From an uncultured Candidatus Altimarinota bacterium (GTDB taxonomy: Bacteria > Patescibacteriota > Gracilibacteria > CAIRYL01): 46,798 nt of DNA. The position numbers and the translations under genes were made by a program. Location of the stretch: contig CAMZKZ010000002.1 of NCBI GenBank assembly GCA_947311645.1, forward strand, positions 1 to 46,798, written 5' to 3'. Below are positions 19,998 through 38,300 of this stretch, one piece after another (within the stretch, counting starts at the first letter, position 1; each line of letters begins with the position of its first letter). The notes below the pieces were generated by a model, which did no database searches, was not told the DNA's origin, and worked only from the letters and a program-made list of their open reading frames with translations.

Positions 19998-20018
19998 AAT
20001 AATGATGGATATATTTTT

Positions 20019-21038
20019 TTATTTTAGCGTTTCAAGTCTTGAAAGAAAATCAATCATTCGTGCTACATATCCCCATTCGTTATCATACCAAAAAAGCATT
20101 TGGGCAGTTTTTCCATTTACTACTTTTGTAGAATCAGCATCTAAAATTGAAGATCGAGTGTCTGCAATAAAATCTGTAGATACAAGTGGTTCATATGAAA
20201 CTCCTAAAATTTCTGGAATTTCTTTCGATTTTTCTTCTATTACTGTGTTTAATTCTTCTGCGGTTACATCTTTAGAAAAATTAATAGTAAGGTCTGAAAT
20301 ACTAGAAGTTGCAAGTGGTACTCGGATAGCCATACCGTTTCCTTTTCCATCGAGTTCTTTTACAACTTTTCCAACAGCACCTGTTGCACCTGTTGTTGTT
20401 GGGATAAGATTTTGTACACCACTTCGTGCTTTTCTCATATCTTTTGCAGAGTTATCAAGAAGATTTTGAGAATCTGTATATGAATGAATGGTTGTAAGGA
20501 GAAAACTTTCAATTCCAATTGCATCATGTAATGCTTTTAATGGTGCAGCAATACAGTTTGTTGTACATGATGCGTTTGAAAGAATTGTCATATCTGCAGT
20601 AATTTCATCATCGTTTGCTCCGAATACATGCATTGCAGATCCATCTTTCATTGGTGCAGATACTAAAACTTTTTTAGCACCAAGGTCTATATGTTTTTGT
20701 GCAAAGTTTGCTTTTGTTGCCATTCCTGTTGCTTCAACTACAACATCAATATTAAGTTCTTTCCAAGGAAGATCGTCAATATTTCCAATATTTAAAGATT
20801 GTGTTGTAAATGTTTTTCCATTTTTTTTCACAATGATGTTTTTATCATCAGCAGAAATATCAAGAGGTGATGTTCTATAAATAGAGTCTCTTTTAAGAAG
20901 ATGTGCTCGTTCTGCAGGAGTGTTTCGTCGAGAATTTACTGCAACGATTTCTATTCCTTGAATATCGTTTTCGATTAATTGTCGGTGAAGCATTCGTCCG
21001 ATTCGACCGTATCCTTGAATTGCAACTCGTAAAGCCAT
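20019..21038 (-). CDS. gap: type I glyceraldehyde-3-phosphate dehydrogenase
   Basis: N-terminus VAIQGYGRIGR and catalytic motif SNASCTTNC. The start was moved to the ATG at 21038 (MALRVAIQGYG). The 28 codons upstream in the ORF track look non-coding. Confidence 0.9.
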   Translation of the reverse strand: MALRVAIQGYGRIGRMLHRQLIENDIQGIEIVAVNSRRNTPAERAHLLKRDSIYRTSPLDISADDKNIIVKKNGKTFTTQSLNIGNIDDLPWKELNIDVVVEATGMATKANFAQKHIDLGAKKVLVSAPMKDGSAMHVFGANDDEITADMTILSNASCTTNCIAAPLKALHDAIGIESFLLTTIHSYTDSQNLLDNSAKDMRKARSGVQNLIPTTTGATGAVGKVVKELDGKGNGMAIRVPLATSSISDLTINFSKDVTAEELNTVIEEKSKEIPEILGVSYEPLVSTDFIADTRSSILDADSTKVVNGKTAQMLFWYDNEWGYVARMIDFLSRLETLK

Positions 21039-21120
21039 GGGAGGTAAGGGGTAAAAATGTAAGAGAAAACTGCGGTAGTAGTATATCTGCAGTTTTGTGG
21101 TTATTATACTATATGTATAC

Positions 21121-21150
21121 AAAAAAAGATAGTCATTATAACTATCTTTT
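21121..21150 (-). terminator. intrinsic terminator after rpmB
   Basis: Stem aaaagatagt (21124-21133) pairs with actatctttt (21141-21150). On the minus strand it is followed by a 7-T run (the complement of 21121-21127). Confidence 0.7.
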
Positions 21151-25909: not shown

Positions 25910-25933
25910 GCTATTTGTTTGAGTACTATACTG

Positions 25934-25969
25934 AAAAAAAAGAGAGTCAAGTTGATTTTCTTTTTTTTT
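25934..25969 (+). terminator. intrinsic terminator after glmS
   Basis: aaaagagagtcaa (25937-25949) pairs with ttgattttctttt (25952-25964), including two G-U pairs. It is followed by a long T-run and preceded by an A-run. Confidence 0.6.
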
Positions 25970-26137
25970 GATATAGTACTAGATTTTTATTGTATTTATG
26001 TGTATAATGATTTGATATTTAACATAAATACCATACAGCACACATATTTGTATTGTCGGCATAGTAGAGGAAATGCTCTTTTTGGTGAAACAAGGGTAGT
26101 ATTTGTGGAAGTTCGTCTTGCTGATGGAACAGAGGTT

Positions 26138-29100
26138 ATGAGAAATGCAAATGGGGCAGAGTGTAAATTGGAAAATCTACAGGAAATATCAGAACAAATG
26201 AAGAGGGGAACTGAAGAAAAGCTTGCATTGTTTGGAGAAAAGTCTAATTTGGTATGCTTGCAATCAGAGGTTGATCAATCATTTTCTGATATTCCTGCTT
26301 TTCCTGAAGATGATAGTATCGATAATACTGAAAATAAAGGGGGGAGTAAAAGCGTGTCAAATGTAGAAAAATTGTACAGAAGTGATGGAGGAAAAGAATT
26401 ATATGAAATTTTGCATAGATTTGGAGATGTGCGAACGAATAGTAATGCACGGTTATTTGTAAATATGTTATCTGATGATATTCAGAAAAATGCAAAAACT
26501 GGAATAACTATTGATAATTTACAAGATACATGGCTTGGGAATAACGATGAAAAAAGTGTAAAAAGAGGTGTTTTTAACGCAATTCATCCGAAAGGTAATA
26601 ACGGAGGAGGAAAGATTCAGAACTCAACATTTCTAGAATATAAAAAAGGAAAAGATTCAGTGCAAGCGTTTGTATCGAAGAAGACATTGTTTTTGCGAGA
26701 TTTTTCAGAAGAGTATACTGAAAAGAGGCAAAATTTAGCACAAATACAACAGCAGTTTTTTGCAACGCTTCCTTCTATTGAGAATGATGCAATATCAAAT
26801 TTGCAAAAGAAGGGATTATTTTCTGAAATTCCAAATTTATATACCTTTTTGCAGACAAAAATAACAAAACCACAAACTCCACAGTTATCAAATAATACAT
26901 CAACTTCAACTGAAGCAGAGGGAGTTTTTGAAGGCTTGAGTAGTGCTGTTATTGAAAAAGAGTTGAAAAAAATTAATATTCTCCAAAGAGATGGAGTGGT
27001 TCAGCATTCAGAAGAATTTCCAAGTGGATCAATACTTACAGATGGAGAAAAACAAATATTACAAGAGTATAAAAACATTTTAGAAGGAATGCGAAGCATA
27101 AATCTTCTGAAACAAAAGAAAAATATACTTGAAAAAGTTGATGTAGATAATAATGGAGGAGATGCTATTGATTTCGTGAATACAAAGATTTCAACCATAA
27201 TAAATAGAATTAAGGAACTCAAGCACAAAAAATTGATCGCAGAAAATGAGTATCCTGTTAATGACAATAAAATTGCATTATTAGAGCAAGATATTCGGTA
27301 TTTACAAGAAGAAAAAGACTTTTATAAAGATCTGCAGGATATGACTTCTTCATTAAACCCTATGGGGTCTCTATATGATGATATTTTTGAGCATGTGTGG
27401 CGTGATGGAAAAATTGTCGCAACAAAGGTGAAAAATATGAATGATACAATTTCTGATTTACATGAATATAGTGAATGGATTATGAAAACACTCTTTGAGG
27501 GGATTCCTACTCCATCAAATCCAGATGTTCGTGCAGTGCTTGTTTCAAGTGCATATCGTGGAAATTTTTCTCCACAACAATTGAATGAAGTGTTGTTAAA
27601 TATGTATCATGGGAAAAAAAATATTGCTGAGTTTTATGAACAAGTTGCAACAGTAATGTATGCATCAGACGATGGGCAAGCACAGGAAGACTTTTTAGCG
27701 TATATTTCGAGCCATACGGAATTTTCTGCAATATCTTTTAAACTTCATGAGGCATCGTTTTTTTGGAATGATACGCTTGCAGGAAATACTGCACATTTCG
27801 ACGAGTCGAACCCTCTTATTTTAAGAGAGGAAAATAGCCGTGAGGAATTTAAAAAAAATTGGGGCTTTAATATACGCTTAGCATATGCAGAGTATAAAAA
27901 ATTACGAGTGTATCCAGTAAAACCATCAGAGGATAATTTACAAAATTCTCTTAAAAAAAATAATCAGGTTTTAGATATATCATTGTGGATTACAAGAGAT
28001 AAAGAAACGCAAAAAAGTATGGTAAATGATTCGCCAGAAATGAAAAGTTATTTATCTCAATTATTGCAAAAAAGTTTACGAATATCTTCTGATGAAGAAA
28101 TAGGAGAGAAGATTGATTCTCTGGAAATTACAGATGAAAAAAAAGCAATATATAAAAAAATTATTGCGGGAGAGTGGCAAAAAGATGATGCAGAAGTGAT
28201 GGTATTTGTACAAACACTGAAATCAGAATTTACAGAAGAAGAAAAAATAGACCAGCGTTTTGCTCTTAAGAATAGTCGAGTTGCTGTAGAATCTGTAGTA
28301 AAAAGTTTTGATGATGATGGGAGTACAATAATGGAAAGTGTTTCGTATATATGGGATAGGGCAACAAGTTTAGATCCAACATATGTTGGAGTGGTTGGTC
28401 TCTTTGCATATTTAATGATGAAAGATAATTCTGGAGAAGAGAAGTCAGGATTATTAAGTTTGTTTAAAACAGTGGCATGGGGAGCAGGGGGTGCTGCTCT
28501 TATCAATTCTGTATCTGATGATATGTTTGATGTTGATCTTTTTGCAAAAGGAAAAGAATTGATTATGGGAGAGGATAAAAATATGCAATTTAGTCCGTCT
28601 GGAGTTGCATTGCTAGAGATGAAAAAAGTACCAGAAGAAAACGAAGATATGGATTCAAAAGAATTTAAAAGAGCGGGTGTTGCATTAAGTAATGGAAATG
28701 TAAAAGAAACACTTGATTGGTATACACATTGTCAAAAGTTGCAAGCTGATCCGAATCGATCTGTAAACGATACAATATATACACAGAAATTACCAAGTGG
28801 TATTAAGCATCTTATTTCTCATATTTATGCAGATGAAGGTTCTGTTGGGGCTGGGCATTCTAAAGAAGATGCAGCACATAAAGTCTTTACATTTTTAGAG
28901 TTGTATTTTAAGAGTGTTTCGTTGCAGTTACATCCAAATGCTGGGGATGGGGCAGGAAATGCGAATATGGGGTATACCTCTATTGCTGATGAATTTTATT
29001 ATCCTGATGAAAACGAGAATAAAACATATACAGAGGTTGGAACAGATATTCTGAAACAAGGGTATACAATGGGAGAGGTAATGCGGGCACGAGTTGCGAG

Positions 29101-29275
29101 AGAGTCTATTCTTAAATTTGATGATGAAATGAATTCTATAGCAGATGCTGTAGGTGTTGGAGCACAGAGTACAAGTGATTTTGTTGGTGATGTAGTAGCA
29201 TCTGTAGGAGATAAGAATGAAAATACAGTACAAACAGATGAAAAAATACAGAGAAATATACAGAGAAATGCATAG
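26138..29275 (+). CDS. large orphan protein (about 1045 aa from the first ATG) with no recognisable catalytic motif
   Basis: Long uninterrupted ORF with coding-like composition. The ORF-track start (TTG at 25919) runs through the glmS terminator and an AT-rich promoter-like stretch, so I place the start at the first ATG (26138). An in-frame GTG at 26105 is an alternative. There are two hydrophobic segments near 28379-28511. Confidence 0.6.
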   Translation: MRNANGAECKLENLQEISEQMKRGTEEKLALFGEKSNLVCLQSEVDQSFSDIPAFPEDDSIDNTENKGGSKSVSNVEKLYRSDGGKELYEILHRFGDVRTNSNARLFVNMLSDDIQKNAKTGITIDNLQDTWLGNNDEKSVKRGVFNAIHPKGNNGGGKIQNSTFLEYKKGKDSVQAFVSKKTLFLRDFSEEYTEKRQNLAQIQQQFFATLPSIENDAISNLQKKGLFSEIPNLYTFLQTKITKPQTPQLSNNTSTSTEAEGVFEGLSSAVIEKELKKINILQRDGVVQHSEEFPSGSILTDGEKQILQEYKNILEGMRSINLLKQKKNILEKVDVDNNGGDAIDFVNTKISTIINRIKELKHKKLIAENEYPVNDNKIALLEQDIRYLQEEKDFYKDLQDMTSSLNPMGSLYDDIFEHVWRDGKIVATKVKNMNDTISDLHEYSEWIMKTLFEGIPTPSNPDVRAVLVSSAYRGNFSPQQLNEVLLNMYHGKKNIAEFYEQVATVMYASDDGQAQEDFLAYISSHTEFSAISFKLHEASFFWNDTLAGNTAHFDESNPLILREENSREEFKKNWGFNIRLAYAEYKKLRVYPVKPSEDNLQNSLKKNNQVLDISLWITRDKETQKSMVNDSPEMKSYLSQLLQKSLRISSDEEIGEKIDSLEITDEKKAIYKKIIAGEWQKDDAEVMVFVQTLKSEFTEEEKIDQRFALKNSRVAVESVVKSFDDDGSTIMESVSYIWDRATSLDPTYVGVVGLFAYLMMKDNSGEEKSGLLSLFKTVAWGAGGAALINSVSDDMFDVDLFAKGKELIMGEDKNMQFSPSGVALLEMKKVPEENEDMDSKEFKRAGVALSNGNVKETLDWYTHCQKLQADPNRSVNDTIYTQKLPSGIKHLISHIYADEGSVGAGHSKEDAAHKVFTFLELYFKSVSLQLHPNAGDGAGNANMGYTSIADEFYYPDENENKTYTEVGTDILKQGYTMGEVMRARVARESILKFDDEMNSIADAVGVGAQSTSDFVGDVVASVGDKNENTVQTDEKIQRNIQRNA

Positions 29276-29613: not shown

Positions 29614-30654
29614 ATGGCAATAGCATCATCTTTAGACTCCTCTCAGCACGCAACAAAAAACAATAATACACTTAAGGAAGGGGTTACAGAAAAAAAACAA
29701 CATATTACAGAAAAAAAATTTGAGCGTGGTTTGCGTCCAGAAAGTTTTTCAGAATTTATTGGGCAAGAAACACTTGTGAATAATTTACAAGTGTTTATTT
29801 CTGGGGCAAAAAAAAGAAAAGAACCGTTATCTCATATGCTGTTATCTGGTCCTCCTGGGCTAGGAAAAACAACATTATCAGGAATTATAGCATATGAAAT
29901 GGGTGGAAATTTGCGTATTACTTCTGGTCCAGCATTGGAAAAAAGTGGAGATTTGGCAGCACTTTTAACATCATTAAAAGATAATGATATTTTATTTATA
30001 GACGAAATTCATCGTTTAAAAAAACCATTAGAAGAAATGCTTTATTCTGCAATGGAGGATTTTGCGATAGATTTAATTGTCGGAAAAGGAGCTGGTGCAA
30101 AATCGATGCGTCTTTCTTTACCTCCATTTACACTTATTGGAGCAACAACAAAATTGGGAAGTATAGCAGGACCATTGCGTGATCGATTTGGAAATATTGC
30201 GAAGTTTCAATTTTATGAAGAAAATGAAATGCAAAAGATTGTGGAACGAACTGCAAAAATATTAGAAATAGGTATTGAACCGAATGCGAGTAAAAAAATA
30301 TCGCTTGCATCTCGTTCTACTCCTCGAATTTCGAATAGAATAGTGCGACAATTGCGAGATTTTGCACATGCGGAAAATCTCAGTGTGATAAATGATGAAA
30401 CATGTCGTATTGGGTTTACTGCATTGGGGATTGATAATTTAGGATTAGATGAGCATGATCGAGAGTATCTTCGTTTAATTGTAGAAACATTTGGAAATCA
30501 GCCTGTTGGAATTTCAACACTTTGTGCTGCATATTCAGAAGAAAAAGAAACAATAGAAGAAATTATTGAACCATATTTATTGCAAAAAGGATTATTGAGA
30601 AGAACTCCTCAGGGGAGAGTGGTTACAGATGCTGGAAAAGAAGTGGTGGTATAA
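29614..30654 (+). CDS. ruvB: Holliday junction branch migration ATPase RuvB
   Basis: LRPESFSEFIGQE, Walker A GPPGLGKTTL, Walker B ILFIDEIHRL, and a C-terminal winged-helix region. Confidence 0.95.
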   Translation: MAIASSLDSSQHATKNNNTLKEGVTEKKQHITEKKFERGLRPESFSEFIGQETLVNNLQVFISGAKKRKEPLSHMLLSGPPGLGKTTLSGIIAYEMGGNLRITSGPALEKSGDLAALLTSLKDNDILFIDEIHRLKKPLEEMLYSAMEDFAIDLIVGKGAGAKSMRLSLPPFTLIGATTKLGSIAGPLRDRFGNIAKFQFYEENEMQKIVERTAKILEIGIEPNASKKISLASRSTPRISNRIVRQLRDFAHAENLSVINDETCRIGFTALGIDNLGLDEHDREYLRLIVETFGNQPVGISTLCAAYSEEKETIEEIIEPYLLQKGLLRRTPQGRVVTDAGKEVVV

Positions 30655-30669
30655 AAACTGTAGCAGGTA

Positions 30670-31164
30670 TTAATTTTTACTAAACTCAAAAATATATTTG
30701 AGAGAAAACATATTGTTATTAAATTGTTTACAACATTTTTTGCATGCAATATGTTGTGTTTTAAAGAAGGTTTTTTGCGGAAGGGTATTTCGCTGTATTT
30801 CTGTTTTACATATTGCGTAATTTTTGCATCGCCCAGTGTATTTTAGCATTGGTGTTGTTATTTCTGACCCATAACATCGTTGTGGGGTTTGTCCAAGAGA
30901 ATGCATGATATCTTTCCATTTTTTTCCGTGTCCTGCACTGTGTCCTGCGAGAGCATGGGCTATTTCATGGAGAAGTGTTTCGGTGACATGTTCTCTGGAG
31001 TTGAGCTCTGTAATATGTTTTGAAAGGGATATTATTTTATGGGTATAGTTACATAATCCAAATCGTTTTTTTGCACGGTCAAATTGGAATTTCCAGCCTT
31101 TTTGTTCGAGTCCGTGTAAAAATAATAATTCATTTGCCAATATTTGTGCATGAAATATGTTCAT
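30670..31164 (-). CDS. SprT-like zinc metallopeptidase-fold protein with a C-terminal Cys-rich zinc ribbon
   Basis: LLHEIAHALAGHSAGHGKKWK (HExxH followed by HG..W, as in the SprT family), and CKNYAIC...ACKKCC at the C-terminus. Confidence 0.7.
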   Translation of the reverse strand: MNIFHAQILANELLFLHGLEQKGWKFQFDRAKKRFGLCNYTHKIISLSKHITELNSREHVTETLLHEIAHALAGHSAGHGKKWKDIMHSLGQTPQRCYGSEITTPMLKYTGRCKNYAICKTEIQRNTLPQKTFFKTQHIACKKCCKQFNNNMFSLKYIFEFSKN

Positions 31165-31711
31165 AGTTTTTGTGGTGCGTAACTTGTTGTTGTAAAATTT
31201 TTAGTGTTTTTTGAAAGCGAAAATTTCTGTGTTTTTTCAATAAAAAAAGTTTTGTATACAGGTTGTTATTATCAATATGTATATATTGTATTGAAAAAGA
31301 AATATTGTAGAGTAAAGAGAGGGTTTGTATCGCTTCTGTACAATATGTACGAAGTGCTATATCAAAAATAATGAGTTTTTTATGCTGAGAAGCCGTATAT
31401 TTTTTATTCATATAAGCAGAATAGAGTATTTCTATGATATATGAAGTGATGAGTTTTTTGAATTTTTTATTTAAAAGAAACCATGTTTTTTTGGTATAAA
31501 AATTAGAATGGCTTCCTGAGTAAAATAAAATTTTTTGTAATTTTTGCGTATTTATGTTTTGTTTTTGGTGTATCGATTTTACAAAATCATCTATATTGAT
31601 GTATTGAATATAGTTTTTATGAAATTTTATTGTATGAAGCGTATGTATTAATTTTTTGCAAAAAGTTGTTTTTCCTGTTCCAATTTTCCCTGATACACAT
31701 ATAATTTTCAC
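31130..31711 (-). CDS. divergent P-loop NTPase/kinase, weakly dephospho-CoA-kinase-like
   Basis: Walker A VSGKIGTGKTT at residues 6-16. The pattern IDDF..., LIIFDIAL resembles the CoaE layout. Composition is very Lys/Ile/Asn/Tyr-rich. The GTG start overlaps the upstream TAG stop by 1 nt. It is the only ORF here that ends in TGA. Confidence 0.4.
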   Translation of the reverse strand: MKIICVSGKIGTGKTTFCKKLIHTLHTIKFHKNYIQYINIDDFVKSIHQKQNINTQKLQKILFYSGSHSNFYTKKTWFLLNKKFKKLITSYIIEILYSAYMNKKYTASQHKKLIIFDIALRTYCTEAIQTLSLLYNISFSIQYIHIDNNNLYTKLFLLKKHRNFRFQKTLKILQQQVTHHKNYEHISCTNIGK

Positions 31712-32325
31712 TATTGTCGTGGTAAAAATCCATTTTCACTTCCATACTTCCATACATGTTGGTTTACCATTTCACTTAAAATTGTTTCCATTTCGTTACT
31801 ATCGGTAAGTCGTTGAAATTTTGTAAAGTTTGTTTTGTATTTTCTCAGTATTTGTTCGGCATTTTGTGGGTCTGCTATATTAGAAAAGAGTGTTTTTCCG
31901 CCAGACATTGTAAATATTTCTATTTGTCCATAGTTAAATATTGTTTGTAGTATTCCATCGGTAGAGATATTAAGCTCTTTCATGTCTTCGTACTCTATTC
32001 GAGAAGATTCTTTTTCAAATATTCCATGCCATTGCACATGAATAATTGAGTAATTTGTAATAAGTATTACATCAAAATACCAGTCGATAATATGATATAT
32101 AATCCATGAAAGAGAAATTATTATCCATGCTGTAGCCCACCACCAGCTGTAATTATATCCTAAATTATGAGCATAAAGAGTTATAGATATTGGAATGAAG
32201 AGGCCTATGATACTCCATGAAATAAACCTTCCCCACATTTCAATTGAATGTCGATGGAAAATTTCAAAAAGTTTTTCACCAGTATCAAGGTGTTCTTTAA
32301 ATATATATTTTTGTAAAAACAGCAT
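31711..32325 (-). CDS. membrane protein with a bacterial PH domain (bPH_2, YdbS/YdbT-like)
   Basis: Two TM helices followed by DVILITNYSIIHVQWHGIFEKESSRIEYEDMKEL...FNYGQIEIFTMSGG, matching the bPH_2 architecture. Confidence 0.6.
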   Translation of the reverse strand: MLFLQKYIFKEHLDTGEKLFEIFHRHSIEMWGRFISWSIIGLFIPISITLYAHNLGYNYSWWWATAWIIISLSWIIYHIIDWYFDVILITNYSIIHVQWHGIFEKESSRIEYEDMKELNISTDGILQTIFNYGQIEIFTMSGGKTLFSNIADPQNAEQILRKYKTNFTKFQRLTDSNEMETILSEMVNQHVWKYGSENGFLPRQ

Positions 32326-32329
32326 GAGG

Positions 32330-33268
32330 TTATGAGAGAGTTGTAGTATAGGCTTGTTGCTGATTGGTATATGTTTTTAATAAAAGAGCTTTCATTTTTT
32401 TCATATTTGCAACATTGCTAAATGTAATAGCATGTTCTTTTGCGCCTGTATCTATATGAAATGTTCCTGAATTTAGAAAAAAATTTACTATACCAAATGC
32501 ACTTGGGTGAATTTCTTTTATGGCTGGAAAAGGAGTAGTTATGATATCTGATCCGAATATATGAGCATCAGATATAACAAGTCTTTTATTTGTTATATAA
32601 ATTATATCATAATGAAAATCTATCCAGTTTTTACTAAAAATCACTACAGCAATAAGAAGGGGTAATAGTGCTATGATTATACTTATAGTATTATATGTAA
32701 ATATTGTGAATACGATAATGGAAAGCGTAGTAAAGAAAAAAACGGGAAGAAGAGAGAAAAAGAATATAATAGGGTGTTTTTGAATAATTCCTATTATTTC
32801 TTCGTTATCTCCTTTTTCAAATTCACCATGAGATGTAAGTGTTGAAATATTATTCGCTATAGAATCTCTTTCATTTTTATAGATAAAAAAGAGTTTTATA
32901 ATTCGAATGAGTCGAATTGTAAGTAAAAGAGGTATAGATGTGTTTATGATTCCATAGTGAGATAATAGAAGTGGTCCTATGGCGATAATATCAATGATTC
33001 CAGAGAATGAAAATATATAGCGAAGTCTGTTTTCTGAAGACCATAATCGTATAATATATTCTATTGTGAATATTATGGCAGTATAGAATTCAATGGTATG
33101 AAGAATGGGGTAAGAATCTGAAAAATAATCAATAAAAAAAAGAGGAGTAATTGCCACAGTAACAATAATAAGTATTGCTATAAATCCATCAAGAAGTATT
33201 GATGCTTTATTATCGTTGTAATGAAATATTTTATTGAAGAGTTTCCATATTTTTGTATTTTTTAGCAT
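32330..33268 (-). CDS. pore-less voltage-sensor domain (S1-S4) fused to a 2-TM bacterial PH (bPH_2-like) module
   Basis: S2 is LHTIEFYTAIIFTIEYIIRLW (acidic and aromatic charge-transfer residues). S3 is GIIDIIAIGP. S4 is LLLTIRLIRIIKLF (R/R/K at every third position, nt ~32890-32935). No K+ or Na+ selectivity-filter sequence follows. The C-terminal part is DIIYITNKRLVISD...GTFHIDTG, preceded by two TM helices. Confidence 0.6.
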   Translation of the reverse strand: MLKNTKIWKLFNKIFHYNDNKASILLDGFIAILIIVTVAITPLFFIDYFSDSYPILHTIEFYTAIIFTIEYIIRLWSSENRLRYIFSFSGIIDIIAIGPLLLSHYGIINTSIPLLLTIRLIRIIKLFFIYKNERDSIANNISTLTSHGEFEKGDNEEIIGIIQKHPIIFFFSLLPVFFFTTLSIIVFTIFTYNTISIIIALLPLLIAVVIFSKNWIDFHYDIIYITNKRLVISDAHIFGSDIITTPFPAIKEIHPSAFGIVNFFLNSGTFHIDTGAKEHAITFSNVANMKKMKALLLKTYTNQQQAYTTTLS

Positions 33269-33384: not shown

Positions 33385-33417
33385 AAAAACTCAAAAGAAA
33401 ATTCTTTTGAGTTTTTA
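33385..33417 (-). terminator. intrinsic terminator after rpsO (structure is bidirectional)
   Basis: ctcaaaag (33390-33397) pairs with cttttgag (33404-33411), with A and T runs on both sides. Confidence 0.7.
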
Positions 33418-33448: not shown

Positions 33449-33703
33449 TTATTTTCGAATTCCTAATGTTTCCATAAGTTTAGCTGCAGCTTCTGGTTGT
33501 TTTTCTTTGTAATTTTTCAACAGTTTTCGTCGTTTCGAAACCATTTGTAAAAGACCTCTTTTTGAATGTAAGTCTTTTTTATTTACTTTTAAATGCTCTG
33601 CTAAGTGAAGAATTCGTGCAGTTAAAATAGTGATTTGAACTGAGTACGATCCTGTATCTTTTGCATGAATTTGTGCATCTGAAATCAATTTTTTTTTGTC
33701 CAT
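33449..33703 (-). CDS. rpsO: 30S ribosomal protein S15
   Basis: [47 protein letters not shown] is a canonical S15 sequence. Confidence 0.9.
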   Translation of the reverse strand: [84 protein letters not shown]

Positions 33704-33966: not shown

Positions 33967-35361
33967 ATGAAAAATACACTTTCTTTTCAGTTTTATTTTC
34001 ATTATTTGCACCGCTATTTTCGTGAGAGTGTATTCTCATTTTTTTATTGTATTGGAATAAGTATTGTCTTTTCTTTTTTTCTTTTTACAGGTGTATTTGC
34101 ACAGTCTTCTTCTGCAACACTAGTATTTCAATCGTGTGAAAATGTAGTATGTACAGATATAGAAAATGGGATATTGGAACAAAAATTTGAAATTGGAGAC
34201 CAATTGCCAATGCGAATTGTGATTAAAAATCCAGAAAATGCACCAGTATTTTCTGTGCAAAGTTGGGTAAAATTTAATGCATCGGTAGTTGGAATTTCAG
34301 GATTAAGTGCAGATGAAAGTGCATTTGATCTTGCAGCTCCAGGAGAATTTAAAGCGGTAAATTCTGATGGTGAATTACGAATAGGGAGAGCAACTACAGG
34401 GTCTGCAAGTAAAGATTCAGAAATTATTGTGGCAGATTTTATTGTAGAAATTAAAAAAAATCCAAATCTTTCAACTCTTCAATTTCTTGATTTTAAAAAA
34501 GATGCTATCGGGAAAACATCTATAGTTACTATTCAGGGGAATATTCCCGCAAATATACTTGAGGAAAATCCAAAAAATCTTGTATTTAAAAATTTAAAAT
34601 CAGCACCTCTTTCGGTAGAAACTGTGCAGAACAATACATCTGTACAGGGATTGGGAAATGGGGAAGTAAGTGTGTTGTCTCAAAATAATACACTTTCTCA
34701 AAATACTGCAGTAGATATTTCTGCTCATAATATATCTATTTCTGTAGAAGGAACAGACGAAACGGTTACATCGTTACCTCAGCCTTCTGGGTTTCGAACA
34801 CGAACATTTTCTGATGGTCGAGTAGAAATGATATGGGAGTTGGATCAGGATACAGCAGTAAAAGGGTATTATTTATATTATTCTAATGTTTCTGGAACCT
34901 ATATGCATAGAAGAGATATGGGGAAAACGAATGTGTATACATTTGATAAAGATTTTTTCAAGCAAGGGAAAAAAGTATTTTTTGCAGTGCAGGCATATTC
35001 AAGTAATGGAACAGTATCTGATTTTTCAAATGAAACATTTGTGATAACTGGAGAAGAAGGAAGTGCTTCTCATCCATTTTTCGAGCAGATCTTCCCTGAT
35101 GCAGAAAAAATAGGTGAAGATATTGAAAAAAATAAAGCGTATTATGTGCAAGCAGGAGAAAGTAATGAAAACAGTGGAAATGCTGGTGGAGTATCAGCAA
35201 ATTTTTCAACAGTGCAAACTGCAGGTAATAAAAATAGTGTTATTGTTGGAAATAAAACTATTGAGTCTGGAAGTCGTTATGAAGTATTTCTTCTATTATT
35301 AGGATTAGTTATGATTATGGGGTCTGGAGGATTTATGCTATTTGCACGACGAGAGCGTTAG
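33967..35361 (+). CDS. cell-surface protein: signal peptide, cohesin-like beta-sandwich, FN3 domain, C-terminal TM anchor
   Basis: Signal-like segment ISIVFSFFLFTGVFAQSSSA. The block GDQLPMRIVIKNP...VQSWVKFNASVV...DGELRIGRAT...IIVADFIVEIKK resembles cohesin domains. The FN3-like block is PSGFRTRTFSDGRVEMIWE...KGYYLYYS...FFAVQAYSSNGTVSDFS. The C-terminal helix is VFLLLLGLVMIMGSGGFMLFARRER. Confidence 0.6.
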   Translation: MKNTLSFQFYFHYLHRYFRESVFSFFYCIGISIVFSFFLFTGVFAQSSSATLVFQSCENVVCTDIENGILEQKFEIGDQLPMRIVIKNPENAPVFSVQSWVKFNASVVGISGLSADESAFDLAAPGEFKAVNSDGELRIGRATTGSASKDSEIIVADFIVEIKKNPNLSTLQFLDFKKDAIGKTSIVTIQGNIPANILEENPKNLVFKNLKSAPLSVETVQNNTSVQGLGNGEVSVLSQNNTLSQNTAVDISAHNISISVEGTDETVTSLPQPSGFRTRTFSDGRVEMIWELDQDTAVKGYYLYYSNVSGTYMHRRDMGKTNVYTFDKDFFKQGKKVFFAVQAYSSNGTVSDFSNETFVITGEEGSASHPFFEQIFPDAEKIGEDIEKNKAYYVQAGESNENSGNAGGVSANFSTVQTAGNKNSVIVGNKTIESGSRYEVFLLLLGLVMIMGSGGFMLFARRER

Positions 35362-35395: not shown

Positions 35396-38300
35396 ATGCA
35401 AAAAATAATAAATATACATTCTTCGGTTTCGATACAATTTCATTATACGCAAAATATGTGTGTAACAGAGTCTCGACTTGTGTATAAAGGAATACTTGAA
35501 GGGTATAAAGAACAAGAAAATTTTAAAGCTTCTGTAAAAAAAGAAGAATTAAAAGATAAAAAATTACGAGCAAAGGCGTATAAAAGAGAAGAGCGAGAAT
35601 TGCAAAAAAATATAAAAAAATTATGTACACTTTCTGGAAAAAAAGAAAAAAATCGTTTGGAGAAAGAGGTGTATTCGCAAATTCTTTTCTTGGAAAAAGA
35701 AGGTGTATTTTCTGTTATTTCACAAAATATTCTTAACAATATAGGGAAAAAAAAAGAGAAAGAGTTTGCACAGGATATTGTAGAAAACTTTAAAGAAAGG
35801 TATGAAAAACAAAATGATAAAAAGGTTGATAGATTGCTTGCAAGTATTCATGCAGAGAAACCTTTTATTGAAAATGAAATAGAGATTATTGCAGAAGTTG
35901 GGGTAGGAAAAATACTTTCTGTGTTATCGGGAAAGGTAGAAAGAAATAGCTTTTTTACATTGTTTTCAAAGATTACAGATTCTGATGAGTTATATGCTTC
36001 GTTAGATGGAGATTTAACAGATTTATTGGAAGATGAAGATATTTCAACACATCATAAAGATATTATTTTTACTGTATTTATAGAGTTATATTGTGTTGAA
36101 AAGAAAATATCAGCAAAAAAAAGAAAAACAGTGCAATCAGAAATTATAGCAGAAAAAAACATGCATGAGTTTGATTATATAAAAAACTTTTTAAAAACAC
36201 TGAAAAAAGAAAAAGATACGATAAAAGAATTGGTGAGAAATACGCTTCCTGAAGATACAGATGATTTGCGAGAGAGGGATAGTGCACGCCAGAAAAAAGA
36301 AGAAGAAATGCTGAATTCTGTTAGAAATTTGTTGGGAGAAGAGAGTGCAAGAGAGGCACAAAAAAAGATGGATGAATATGCAAAAACAGACTATGAAAAA
36401 CGACAGATAGCATATTTTAAATATATAAACGAAGAGATAAAACCATCGCTGGAGATGATTAAAAAAAGAGAGATAAAGAGTGTAAAAGAATATGTACGCA
36501 AACAGCAAAAAGTACTAGAGTTTTCTTTTTCTGTAATGCCAGCACTTTCAAAAGAACAGCAGCAGCAAAAACAAAAAAAAATAGCAGAAGAGTTTGGAAT
36601 TTTTTATGAATATTTAGACGCATTAGCATTGTCTGAACAACAAAATTCATATTTGCCGATTATAGATTTTTTAACAGATGGAGGGCGAACAAAGTCTCAA
36701 CGGGAGGCCATGCGAAATTTACATATATTTACAGAAGAAGATATTGCAATTCTTAAAGAAGTTGAATCGAAGCGACTTATTTTTAGAGATGTTCTTGAAT
36801 CTCAACGATTACAATATTCTGAAGATACATCGTCTTTAAATGTTATATTGGAATCATCTCAATATAAAGCATTAAAAGAAAAAGATCCAGAATGTACAGA
36901 TGAGTTATTGTCTTTTATGCAAGAAAAAAATATCCTTACAGATGAAGGAATTATTGCAATTTGTGGAAAAGAAGATGCGAGTTATCGTCCAGAGTATTTT
37001 ATGAAGGCGTATAATTTTTTAGAATCTGAACTTGGGGGGCGAAAAAATAAACATGTTCTCAATAAGCTTATTGAAGATGTGCATGAGACTGCATTGCCAA
37101 AATATGTAATAGAAAAATATGGAAAAGTAGTATCAAAAAGTGGGAAAATATCAGAGAATATATATGCGTTTTTTAGCACACCGCGTTTAAGCAATGGCTT
37201 AGGTGATATTATACATTCTGTATCAAAAGTTTCTACAGATATTGTTGAGTATTCAAAAGAGACAGGAAAATTTTCTGAAAAGGGAATTATGGGAGAATTG
37301 AAAGAAACATATGCATTTTTTTCAACAATAGAGAAATTAATAGAACGCAAGAAAGAAGCTATTCGAGAAATAGGGAAAATGTTGCATGCAGTGGTACAAG
37401 AATCAGGAAATATGAAGACTTCGTATACATCTGAGATACAAAAAATTTTGAAGGAGCTTGAAGAAAACTATACCGCTCTTCAAGATGATGTACGCAACAG
37501 GAAAGTTCCTTCTTCGATAGCAGCACAACGCTATGTTTCACAAGAATTAAAAAATTTTATTGATGAGGCAACAACAGACGACGAAAAAGAATCTCGTTTA
37601 GAATTGGTAAATGCAGAAATTAAAAAATTGGCACAACAGTTTAGTGAAGAAAATTTGCAAAATTTGCTTGCAGATGCAAAAAATGCATTAGAAAAAGATA
37701 CAGAAGAGAAAACAGGTGGGAAATATTTATATACACTGTTAACCGGTTTGGATACAAAAAGATTGGAAAAACGCACTATTTCTATTGCGGAAAAAATTCT
37801 ATTTGACTTGATTGCAGAAAAGAAGGGAGTATCTGTTGAATCGATTGTAGCATTGCAAGATTTAATGAATACAGAAAATTCGTATGGTGAGCCATATATT
37901 ATTGAAGGAGAAAGTACAGCATATTATCCAGAAAAAAATCAGATAGAGCTTGAATCTCATATTTTTGTAGAAGTAAAAAAATTTGATATACAGAGTGATG
38001 TAGAAATGTTGCAGTATTCTGCAGAAACAAAAGATTTTTATGAAAATTTAAGTAAAGTTTTTCATGAACTTGGGCATAGTATGGTTGCGAAAAAAGGGCT
38101 TATGCGTGTGCGATTTTCTAGTATTTTACAATCGGAATTTGGGAACGATTATGGAGAATTTACAGAAAAAGTGGATACTGTTTATGGGTATGAAGCATCA
38201 GAAGACAATATGGAAGAGTTGCTTGTGGAGATTGGAGCATTATTGCAATTTGAACCGCAAGTAAGAGCAAATTTTATAGAAAAGGATTCTGTTATAGATG

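Follow-up and report, generated by a model that had tools for sequence, protein, structure and literature searches.

The 46,798-nt stretch of DNA analysed here (the window; contig CAMZKZ010000002.1 of assembly GCA_947311645.1) comes from an uncultured Candidatus Altimarinota bacterium. It carries on its minus strand a gene, called gene 1 below, in which a pore-less voltage-sensor domain (VSD) is fused to a hairpin of two transmembrane helices (2TM) and a bacterial PH (bPH) domain. This architecture is certain, and the protein is predicted to sense voltage. On balance, the evidence leans towards gene 1 encoding a genuine and probably functional VSD of the Kv lineage, which controls a membrane module of the YdbS/YdbT type and not a pore. 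A preliminary description of the same DNA had proposed a complete pore-less VSD fused to a 2TM-bPH module, and this was borne out by Pfam, an AlphaFold2 (AF2) model and Foldseek. The functional unit of four genes that it had built around the fusion was not supported. Gene 1 and its two halves are located as follows:

32330-33268, minus strand: gene 1, VSD-bPH fusion, 312 aa (open reading frame (ORF) from ATG to TAA)
32852-33208, minus strand: voltage-sensor domain S1-S4, residues 21-139 (AF2 helices, Kv4 alignment and conservation)
32333-32851, minus strand: linker, 2TM hairpin and bacterial PH domain, residues 140-312 (AF2 and Foldseek)

The Ion_trans profile of Pfam matched gene 1 with 33.9 bits (cut-off 25). 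The match, between residues 26-128 of the protein and positions 4-110 of the 241-position profile, spanned S1-S4 only, and no match to Ion_trans_2 was found in gene 1. The sensor helices were assigned in the AF2 model to residues 21-45 (S1), 47-77 (S2), 88-104 (S3) and 112-139 (S4). The S2, S3 and S4 motifs pointed out in the preliminary description were all found in the protein, with S2 containing IIFTIEYIIRLW, S3 reading GIIDIIAIGP and S4 reading TIRLIRIIKLF. The key sensor residues are E60, F67, E70, R74, D93, R119, R122 and K125, the last three being basic residues that occupy every third position of S4. When a profile made from gene 1 together with close homologues was compared with the PDB, the Kv4, Kv2 and Kv1 sensors aligned to S2-S4 at E = 1.2e-6, which is far beyond chance. 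The residues of the charge-transfer centre, F67 and E70 in S2 and D93 in S3, as well as the outer E60, aligned with Kv4 residues of S2 and S3.

The AF2 model of gene 1, built with a 42-sequence family alignment as the input, reached a pLDDT of 94.4 and a pTM of 0.88. It starts with an N-terminal amphipathic helix preceding S1. S4 forms one long continuous helix, followed by a short cytoplasmic linker and a beta-strand (residues 158-164), and a conserved E156...H165 strand precedes the fifth transmembrane helix. The two helices of the hairpin, TM5 (166-189) and TM6 (194-220), are almost charge-free and variable, and are joined by a variable loop of four residues. Because of this short loop, there is no room in gene 1 for a P-loop or a selectivity filter. 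The chain continues with a PH beta-sandwich (222-287) and ends with a C-terminal helix (289-311). The Foldseek search of the model against the PDB returned chains of Kv1, Kv4 and KCNQ, and for the C-terminal part the bacterial PH domains 3dcx and 3hsa (rmsd of 2.4 A over 85 columns). The 2TM hairpin followed by a bacterial PH fold is thus present in gene 1, and the four-helix VSD without a pore expected from the preliminary description was confirmed by the confident model and its matches to Kv sensors.

The family of gene 1 was collected by an exhaustive HMMER search over 1.84 billion representatives, which yielded 31 representatives at E <= 1e-30. A word-indexed search had returned four close homologues (55-62% identity) followed by ordinary Kv channels, and a profile word-search with the 42-member alignment was dominated by channels and gave almost no additions. 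The family comprises about 45 full-length clusters at the 50% identity level, of about 290-400 aa, which match gene 1 from end to end, and overall identity to the window protein drops to 17-40%. Ion_trans was matched in 42/42 aligned members, bPH_3 in 27 and bPH_2 in 23 of them, with the best bPH_2 E-value of 1.6e-11. The S4 motif LRxLRILK was nearly invariant in the family. The conservation of the sensor residues among the 42 members was as follows:

E60, outer acidic residue of S2: 34/42
F67, S2, charge-transfer centre: 39/42
E70, S2, charge-transfer centre: 41/42
R74, S2: 37/42
D93, S3, charge-transfer centre: 40/42
R119, S4: 38/42
R122, S4: 41/42
K/R125, S4: 38/42

A genome scan with a 12-sequence query alignment, covering one genome per GTDB species, revealed (among the matches listed) 28 full-length loci in 28 species genomes. 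All 28 loci were located in metagenome-assembled genomes (MAGs) labelled Gracilibacteria, Peribacteria, Peregrinibacteria or Altimarinota. Hits in Nostoc, Pedobacter and others were taken as ordinary channels because the match was limited to the sensor. The gene 1 family is a conserved and unstudied one, confined to one group of the candidate phyla radiation (CPR).

Shorter sensor proteins were also encountered. P0061, a protein of 149 aa encoded on a 29.9-kb metagenome contig, is apparently a complete stand-alone S1-S4 domain with five S4 charges, which ends after S4. Many sensor hits of this kind, with lengths of 105-260 aa, were present in the HMMER search, some of which may be fragments. 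Pore-less sensors may be commoner in metagenomes than the literature suggests.

The second bPH protein of the locus is encoded directly downstream of gene 1:

31711-32325, minus strand: gene 2, stand-alone 2TM + bPH_2 protein of the YdbS type, 204 aa (ORF from ATG to TAG)

Its assignment as a stand-alone 2TM bPH_2 protein, made in the preliminary description, agreed with the Pfam result (bPH_2, 24.8 bits, cut-off 22). The AF2 model of gene 2 was weak (pLDDT 68). The protein is 76-79% identical in three near relatives and has a conserved C-terminal tail. At least 21 clusters at 52-78% identity make up its family, whose members have 204 aa with few exceptions. Over the PH domain, genes 1 and 2 showed 31% identity (E = 1e-8), and both have an E...H strand ahead of the hairpin and, after it, a W-D-x3-D...T-x2-R pattern. 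The C-terminal half of gene 1 is a module paralogous to gene 2. The possibility that gene 2 is a recent duplicate of the gene 1 C-terminus was rejected because gene 2 was placed outside the best 150 profile hits, while proteins with a cyclic nucleotide-binding domain (CNBD) joined to bPH and other stand-alone bPH proteins were inside.

The C-terminal half of gene 1 had its closest relatives outside the gene 2 type. They were the uncharacterised proteins P0062, P0066, P0074 and P0079 (E of about 1e-13 to 1e-9), in which an N-terminal cNMP_binding domain is followed by two 2TM-bPH_2 modules; proteins of this type had 550-600 aa, one having 815 aa, and one of them was annotated as 'YdbT with pleckstrin-like domain'. 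In the alignment, the CNBD and the S4 of the VSD meet the module at the same conserved E...H strand. Since two different classical sensors are found on one module, the 2TM-bPH unit can be argued to be a regulated effector. In Firmicutes, modules of the 2TM-bPH kind are required for exporting peptides and have a link to the envelope-stress regulon.

According to the proposed mechanism, a change in membrane potential would move S4, with its R119, R122 and K125, through the F67/E70/D93 charge-transfer centre. Such movement would displace the linker and the E156...H165 strand, and this shift would alter the conformation or the oligomeric state of the bPH module at the inner face of the membrane, so that voltage would control whatever the 2TM-bPH module does. 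In the narrow clade of the window, gene 1 would be co-expressed with gene 2, a YdbS-like bPH protein with one module, and the two might form a YdbT/YdbS-like pair. Voltage sensing itself is inferred, as are the route of coupling, the output of the module and the partnership with gene 2.

The pairing was examined in the surroundings of both genes. The gap between genes 1 and 2 did not exceed 9 nt in any of the four close genomes, even where the upstream context differed. A small and a larger bPH gene lie next to each other in the same orientation in the window and three close relatives, whereas such a pair was absent from 26 of the 27 wider loci carrying gene 1 homologues. Around gene 2 orthologues of 58-65% identity, genes 1, 3 and 4 were not adjacent. 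In three of these contexts (L084 2750-4854, L085 2908-4906 and L087 669-2719), the gene 2 orthologue lies next to, and diverges from, a further 2TM-bPH paralogue, which has 232-266 aa and a Lys-rich tail. This paralogue is located directly downstream of an FtsX/MacB-type permease gene and on the strand of the latter. An EVE-domain gene was observed downstream of the gene 2 orthologue in two of these three loci. Some second gene with a bPH module adjoined gene 2 in 7/7 contexts at >= 58% identity, the partner being variable. YdbS/YdbT-like genes are found next to each other and are known to function in pairs, with both DdE and DdF being needed for the export of enterocin DD14 (EntDD14; PMC8657885). 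By analogy, a YdbT/YdbS-like hetero-complex of the gene 1 and gene 2 products in the narrow clade is plausible.

Several observations weigh against a voltage-controlled YdbS/YdbT-type module. In the Pfam check of gene 1, the Ion_trans half stood, but the bPH half was recognised only below threshold (bPH_3, 17 bits, cut-off 23). The clustering of all flanking ORFs revealed no second bPH gene nearby in 26/27 loci, and therefore a gene 2 partner is not generally required by the family. The putative coupling path from S4 to the PH domain was read from the secondary structure of the model alone, and the output of the 2TM-bPH module is itself poorly understood. Gene 1 also diverges faster than its neighbours, as identity between the window and the nearest relative was 56% for gene 1, 79% for gene 2 and 87% for RuvB. 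Finally, R119 is replaced by Q in one close relative and is missing in another member of the family.

A rather doubtful alternative, though the best surviving one, is that gene 1 forms a non-canonical voltage-gated conduit. VSD-bPH subunits, with or without gene 2, would join through a cytoplasmic bPH ring, and the TM5-TM6 hairpins would line a sensor-gated passage for ions, peptides or lipids, giving a six-helix 'channel' without a P-loop. Crystal structures of PHb domains showed oligomeric rings (C5 and 12-mer), and membrane PHb proteins were hypothesised by Xu et al. to be transporters or pores (PMC2817789). Such a conduit would also agree with the requirement for both DdE and DdF in peptide export (PMC8657885), with the fusion of the same module to the cNMP-binding domain, the other classical sensor in channel gating, and with a six-helix layout that is superficially Kv-like. 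However, the charge content of TM5 and TM6 is close to nil (0.02 and 0.08), both helices are hydrophobic and belong to the more variable parts of the protein, they are connected by just four variable residues, and any Ion_trans_2 or P-loop signal is absent. A broader proposal, put forward only tentatively, is that the 2TM-bPH_2 module may serve more generally as a gated effector in the membrane, with bPH rings assembling it into a conduit or transporter. If true, this would define a class of membrane devices that are gated by voltage or ligands and do without a P-loop, and VSD-bPH would be the first pore-less voltage-sensor protein from a prokaryote to have an output other than a channel.

It is improbable that S1-S4 of gene 1 is a relic, acting as a voltage-insensitive anchor or scaffold similar to that of TRP channels, in which case the protein would be another YdbT-like bPH protein. 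The fast evolution of gene 1 in this clade and the occasional loss of the first S4 arginine are in line with such a relic. Against it, the charge-transfer centre and the R/R/K triplet remained near-invariant across sequences only 17-40% identical, and a mere anchor is disfavoured because such invariance of sensor residues would not be expected of it.

Still less credit can be given to an Hv1-like protein, in which the sensor itself would conduct protons or ions via the gating pore, with the bPH domain serving oligomerisation or regulation. Gene 1 shares with Hv1 the three S4 charges and the architecture without a pore, and its acidic residues E60, E70 and D93 are conserved. Hv1 proteins are recognised by an Asp in mid-S1 acting as the selectivity filter, an RxWRxxR motif in S4 and a C-terminal coiled coil. 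None of these was found in gene 1, which has S37 at the S1 position, an S4 free of Trp and a C-terminal PH domain. Position 37 was occupied by Ser in 39 and by Thr in three of the 42 family members, and never by the selectivity-defining Asp. Moreover, the best sequence matches were Kv sensors and not Hv1, and Hv channels were reported in a 2024 review to be absent from bacteria and archaea (PMC13095418).

The preliminary description had also suggested that the fusion, gene 2 and the two genes that follow belong to one membrane-potential-sensing system. The other members of the block and its neighbour are:

31130-31711, minus strand: gene 3, P-loop protein, 193 aa (ORF from GTG to TGA)
30670-31164, minus strand: gene 4, SprT-like protein of the zinc metalloprotease type, 164 aa (ORF from ATG to TAA)
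29614-30654: ruvB, convergent with the gene 1-4 block

A single functional system of all four genes is very improbable, and the synteny survey has largely refuted it. In its favour, the genes are tightly packed, and the order of genes 1-2-3-4 followed by the convergent ruvB was kept in the three closest relatives, L001 (the same as L004), L002 and L003, even though the upstream neighbourhood in L002 differs from that in the others. In contrast, no homologue of genes 2, 3, 4 or ruvB was detected within 5 kb in 26/27 genome loci with a gene 1 homologue, the lone exception being L004, a contig identical to L001. The tblastn search of genes 2, 3, 4 and RuvB on the 26 loci gave the PH half of the gene 1 homologue as the sole match. 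The linkage was likewise absent around gene 2 orthologues. In the MAG GCA_054036535.1, a gene 1-type gene was located on contig 43 and a gene 2-type gene on contig 40, and the two types were similarly split in one Logan sample. Since the linkage is lost beyond the closest relatives, the four-gene unit is a local arrangement and not a conserved system, and for genes 3 and 4 in particular no conserved linkage to gene 1 is seen among the homologues. Unrelated genes are routinely packed together in compact CPR genomes, and gene 3 resembles the housekeeping CoaE. An anti-phage defence system was considered and rejected, as none of the four proteins matched the PADLOC defence models.

Outside the close clade, the gene 1 homologues were found in other recurrent surroundings. 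A divergent dnaK gene adjoined the homologue in 12 loci (L006, L007, L014, L015, L017-L023 and L025), and a convergent 570-aa gene without a recognised domain followed it in 14 loci. Most of the dnaK loci have both neighbours, which leaves the gene 1 homologue alone on its strand in many cases. Other neighbours encoded dihydroorotate dehydrogenase, a P-type ATPase and an aminopeptidase. This dnaK/570-aa synteny around the VSD-bPH gene is conserved but probably not functional. Further along the dnaK-type loci, YebC-like and pseudouridine-synthase-like genes were assigned by eye.

The idea that gene 1 is a decayed fragment of an ordinary Kv channel, for which it can only be said that small Kv channels are the nearest sequence matches outside the family, is already refuted and is given practically no weight, since about 45 clusters keep the architecture and the length (about 290-400 aa), the PH domain at the C-terminus is complete and modelled with confidence, and a pore was present in no member.

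Genes 3 and 4 were characterised in turn. Gene 3 carries the P-loop GKIGTGKT. The window copy gave only N-terminal P-loop hits in Pfam, all below the cut-offs, while CoaE was matched in two of four gene 3 orthologues (best E = 7.6e-6), in agreement with the P-loop kinase-like assignment of the preliminary description. The best PDB match was the T. maritima dephospho-CoA kinase 2grj (E = 0.05), with the motif GKIGTGKS. On the basis of these matches, gene 3 is a probable divergent CoaE-like (dephospho-CoA) kinase. For gene 4, the SprT-like assignment with an HExxH motif was upheld by Pfam (SprT-like, 57.7 bits, cut-off 25.6) and by its HEIAH sequence. It also matched NCBIfam SprT (E = 5.4e-8) and Spartan 6mdx (E = 0.009), has a Cys-rich C-terminus with conserved C113, C119, C141, C144 and C145, and is 74-76% identical in near relatives. 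In the orthologous loci, the stop of gene 3 and the start of gene 4 either overlap as ATGA (two loci) or lie 2 nt apart. In the window, the reading frame of gene 3 changes close to its 3' end (31130-31180), which resulted in a non-homologous tail of 16 residues and a 35-nt overlap peculiar to this genome. Genes 3 and 4 form an ancestrally coupled pair of their own, and because the former is CoaE-like and the latter SprT-like, both are most likely housekeeping genes carried along as passengers in a compact genome.

The positions and junctions of the four minus-strand genes given in the preliminary description were exact, as verified in the ORF list and the junction sequences. Genes 1 and 2 are separated by a 4-nt gap (TAA-CCTC-ATG), genes 2 and 3 share a 1-nt TAG/GTG overlap (TAGTG), and genes 3 and 4 overlap as described above. 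Two elements lie upstream of gene 1:

33385-33416, minus strand: AT-rich hairpin with a T-run right after rpsO, likely the rpsO terminator (RNA folding)
33449-33703: rpsO

The hairpin has a 14-bp stem and a folding energy of -15.4 kcal/mol (z = -4.76), and was not picked up by a GC-based terminator scan. Because of this terminator hairpin after rpsO, genes 1-4 are probably a transcription unit of their own, starting downstream of the hairpin. The proposed single operon is thus plausible in terms of co-transcription, given the tight packing of the genes and the hairpin upstream. A scan for consensus promoters was no better than chance, with 25 sites found versus 23.5 expected from shuffled sequence.

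The window is chromosomal DNA with a G+C content of 27-34%, in which recA, GAPDH and glmS-type genes were also present. Three large ORFs of 1118, 464 and 1758 aa are located at 25919-29275, 33967-35361 and 35396-40672, and none of them had a Pfam match at E <= 0.001. In L001, the block is flanked by counterparts of comparable length (1093, 440 and 1759 aa), the 440-aa one with a weak Cohesin match. The three window ORFs probably encode surface or giant proteins specific to the lineage, of a kind typical of CPR bacteria. A pair of plus-strand ORFs at 20002-20880, in the same frame and split by a TGA, was considered as a read-through gene and rejected as spurious because the ORFs had no domain matches and are antisense to a clear GAPDH gene (20019-21122, minus strand).

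Gracilibacteria are a group known for reading UGA as Gly, and code 25 was considered for the window since its nearest relative is labelled Gracilibacteria. Stop usage among 33 credible genes was TAA 23, TAG 9 and TGA 1, the last being that of gene 3 (31130-31132). The only other ORF ending in TGA was the spurious one antisense to GAPDH. Code 25 was rejected because no in-frame TGA was found in any credible gene of the window and the gene 3 orthologues all end in TGA. The lineage appears to read the standard code, with TGA strongly avoided.

In comparison with known systems, gene 1 most resembles the Kv sensors (PF00520; Kv4, Kv2, Kv1 and KCNQ), which gave the best sequence and fold matches and share with it S1-S4, the outer S2 acidic residue, the F/E/D centre and the S4 Arg/Lys residues at every third position. 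The other features of voltage-gated six-helix channels, an S4-S5 linker, S5, a pore helix, a selectivity filter and S6, were not found in gene 1, whose S4 runs on into the PH-domain strand. Moreover, only three S4 charges are conserved in the family, up to five being present in some members. The eukaryotic pore-less VSD proteins (Ci-VSP, Hv1 and TMEM266/HVRP1) are similar in having S4 wired to a cytoplasmic, membrane-apposed domain, and the voltage-sensing phosphatase (VSP) is the best analogy. In contrast to them, gene 1 is bacterial and occurs only in the Gracilibacteria/Peregrinibacteria group; its effector is a 2TM-bPH module and not a phosphatase or a coiled coil, and it lacks the S1 Asp of Hv1. 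No Pfam match to the PTEN-like phosphatase and C2 domains that follow S4 in VSP was found in gene 1, and common descent with these proteins as a fusion is not evidenced. As the defining features of each are missing, gene 1 is not a P-loop channel, an Hv1 or a VSP.

The C-terminal half of gene 1 and gene 2 have the same 2TM + bPH_2 module as YdbS/YdbT (COG3402/COG3428), DdE/DdF, LnqC/D and Orf7/8. As with genes 1 and 2 in the window and its three close relatives, the small and large bPH genes are adjacent in ydbST and ddEF (PMC8657885). However, the known pairs have no sensor domain, and the sequence identity is low. Their known examples come from Firmicutes and Actinobacteria, some in leaderless-bacteriocin clusters, whereas no bacteriocin genes were seen in the window. 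The proteins with cNMP_binding and two 2TM-bPH_2 modules are similar to gene 1 in having the sensor attached at the N-terminal strand of the module, and differ from it in having a CNBD as the sensor and two bPH modules per chain, gene 1 having a VSD and one module. Gene 1 is thus a member of both the Ion_trans sensor superfamily and the bPH_2 class of membrane proteins.

The VSD and bPH_2 modules are known, and what is new is the sensor-effector architecture, which is restricted to a single CPR group. The literature searched contained no account of a VSD-bPH fusion or of a bacterial pore-less voltage sensor. To our knowledge, voltage sensors coupled to outputs other than a P-loop pore are limited to a few eukaryotic proteins (VSP, Hv1, TMEM266 and sNHE). 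Membrane potential is possibly coupled in the gene 1 family to an output other than a classical channel, and at about 310 aa the protein would be a simple system for the study of transmission from S4 to a non-channel domain. Since its sister proteins have a cNMP-binding sensor at the junction where gene 1 has its VSD, gene 1 could also provide a functional handle on the enigmatic YdbS/YdbT bPH proteins, and it could reveal the way in which membrane potential is sensed by the ultra-small cells of the CPR.

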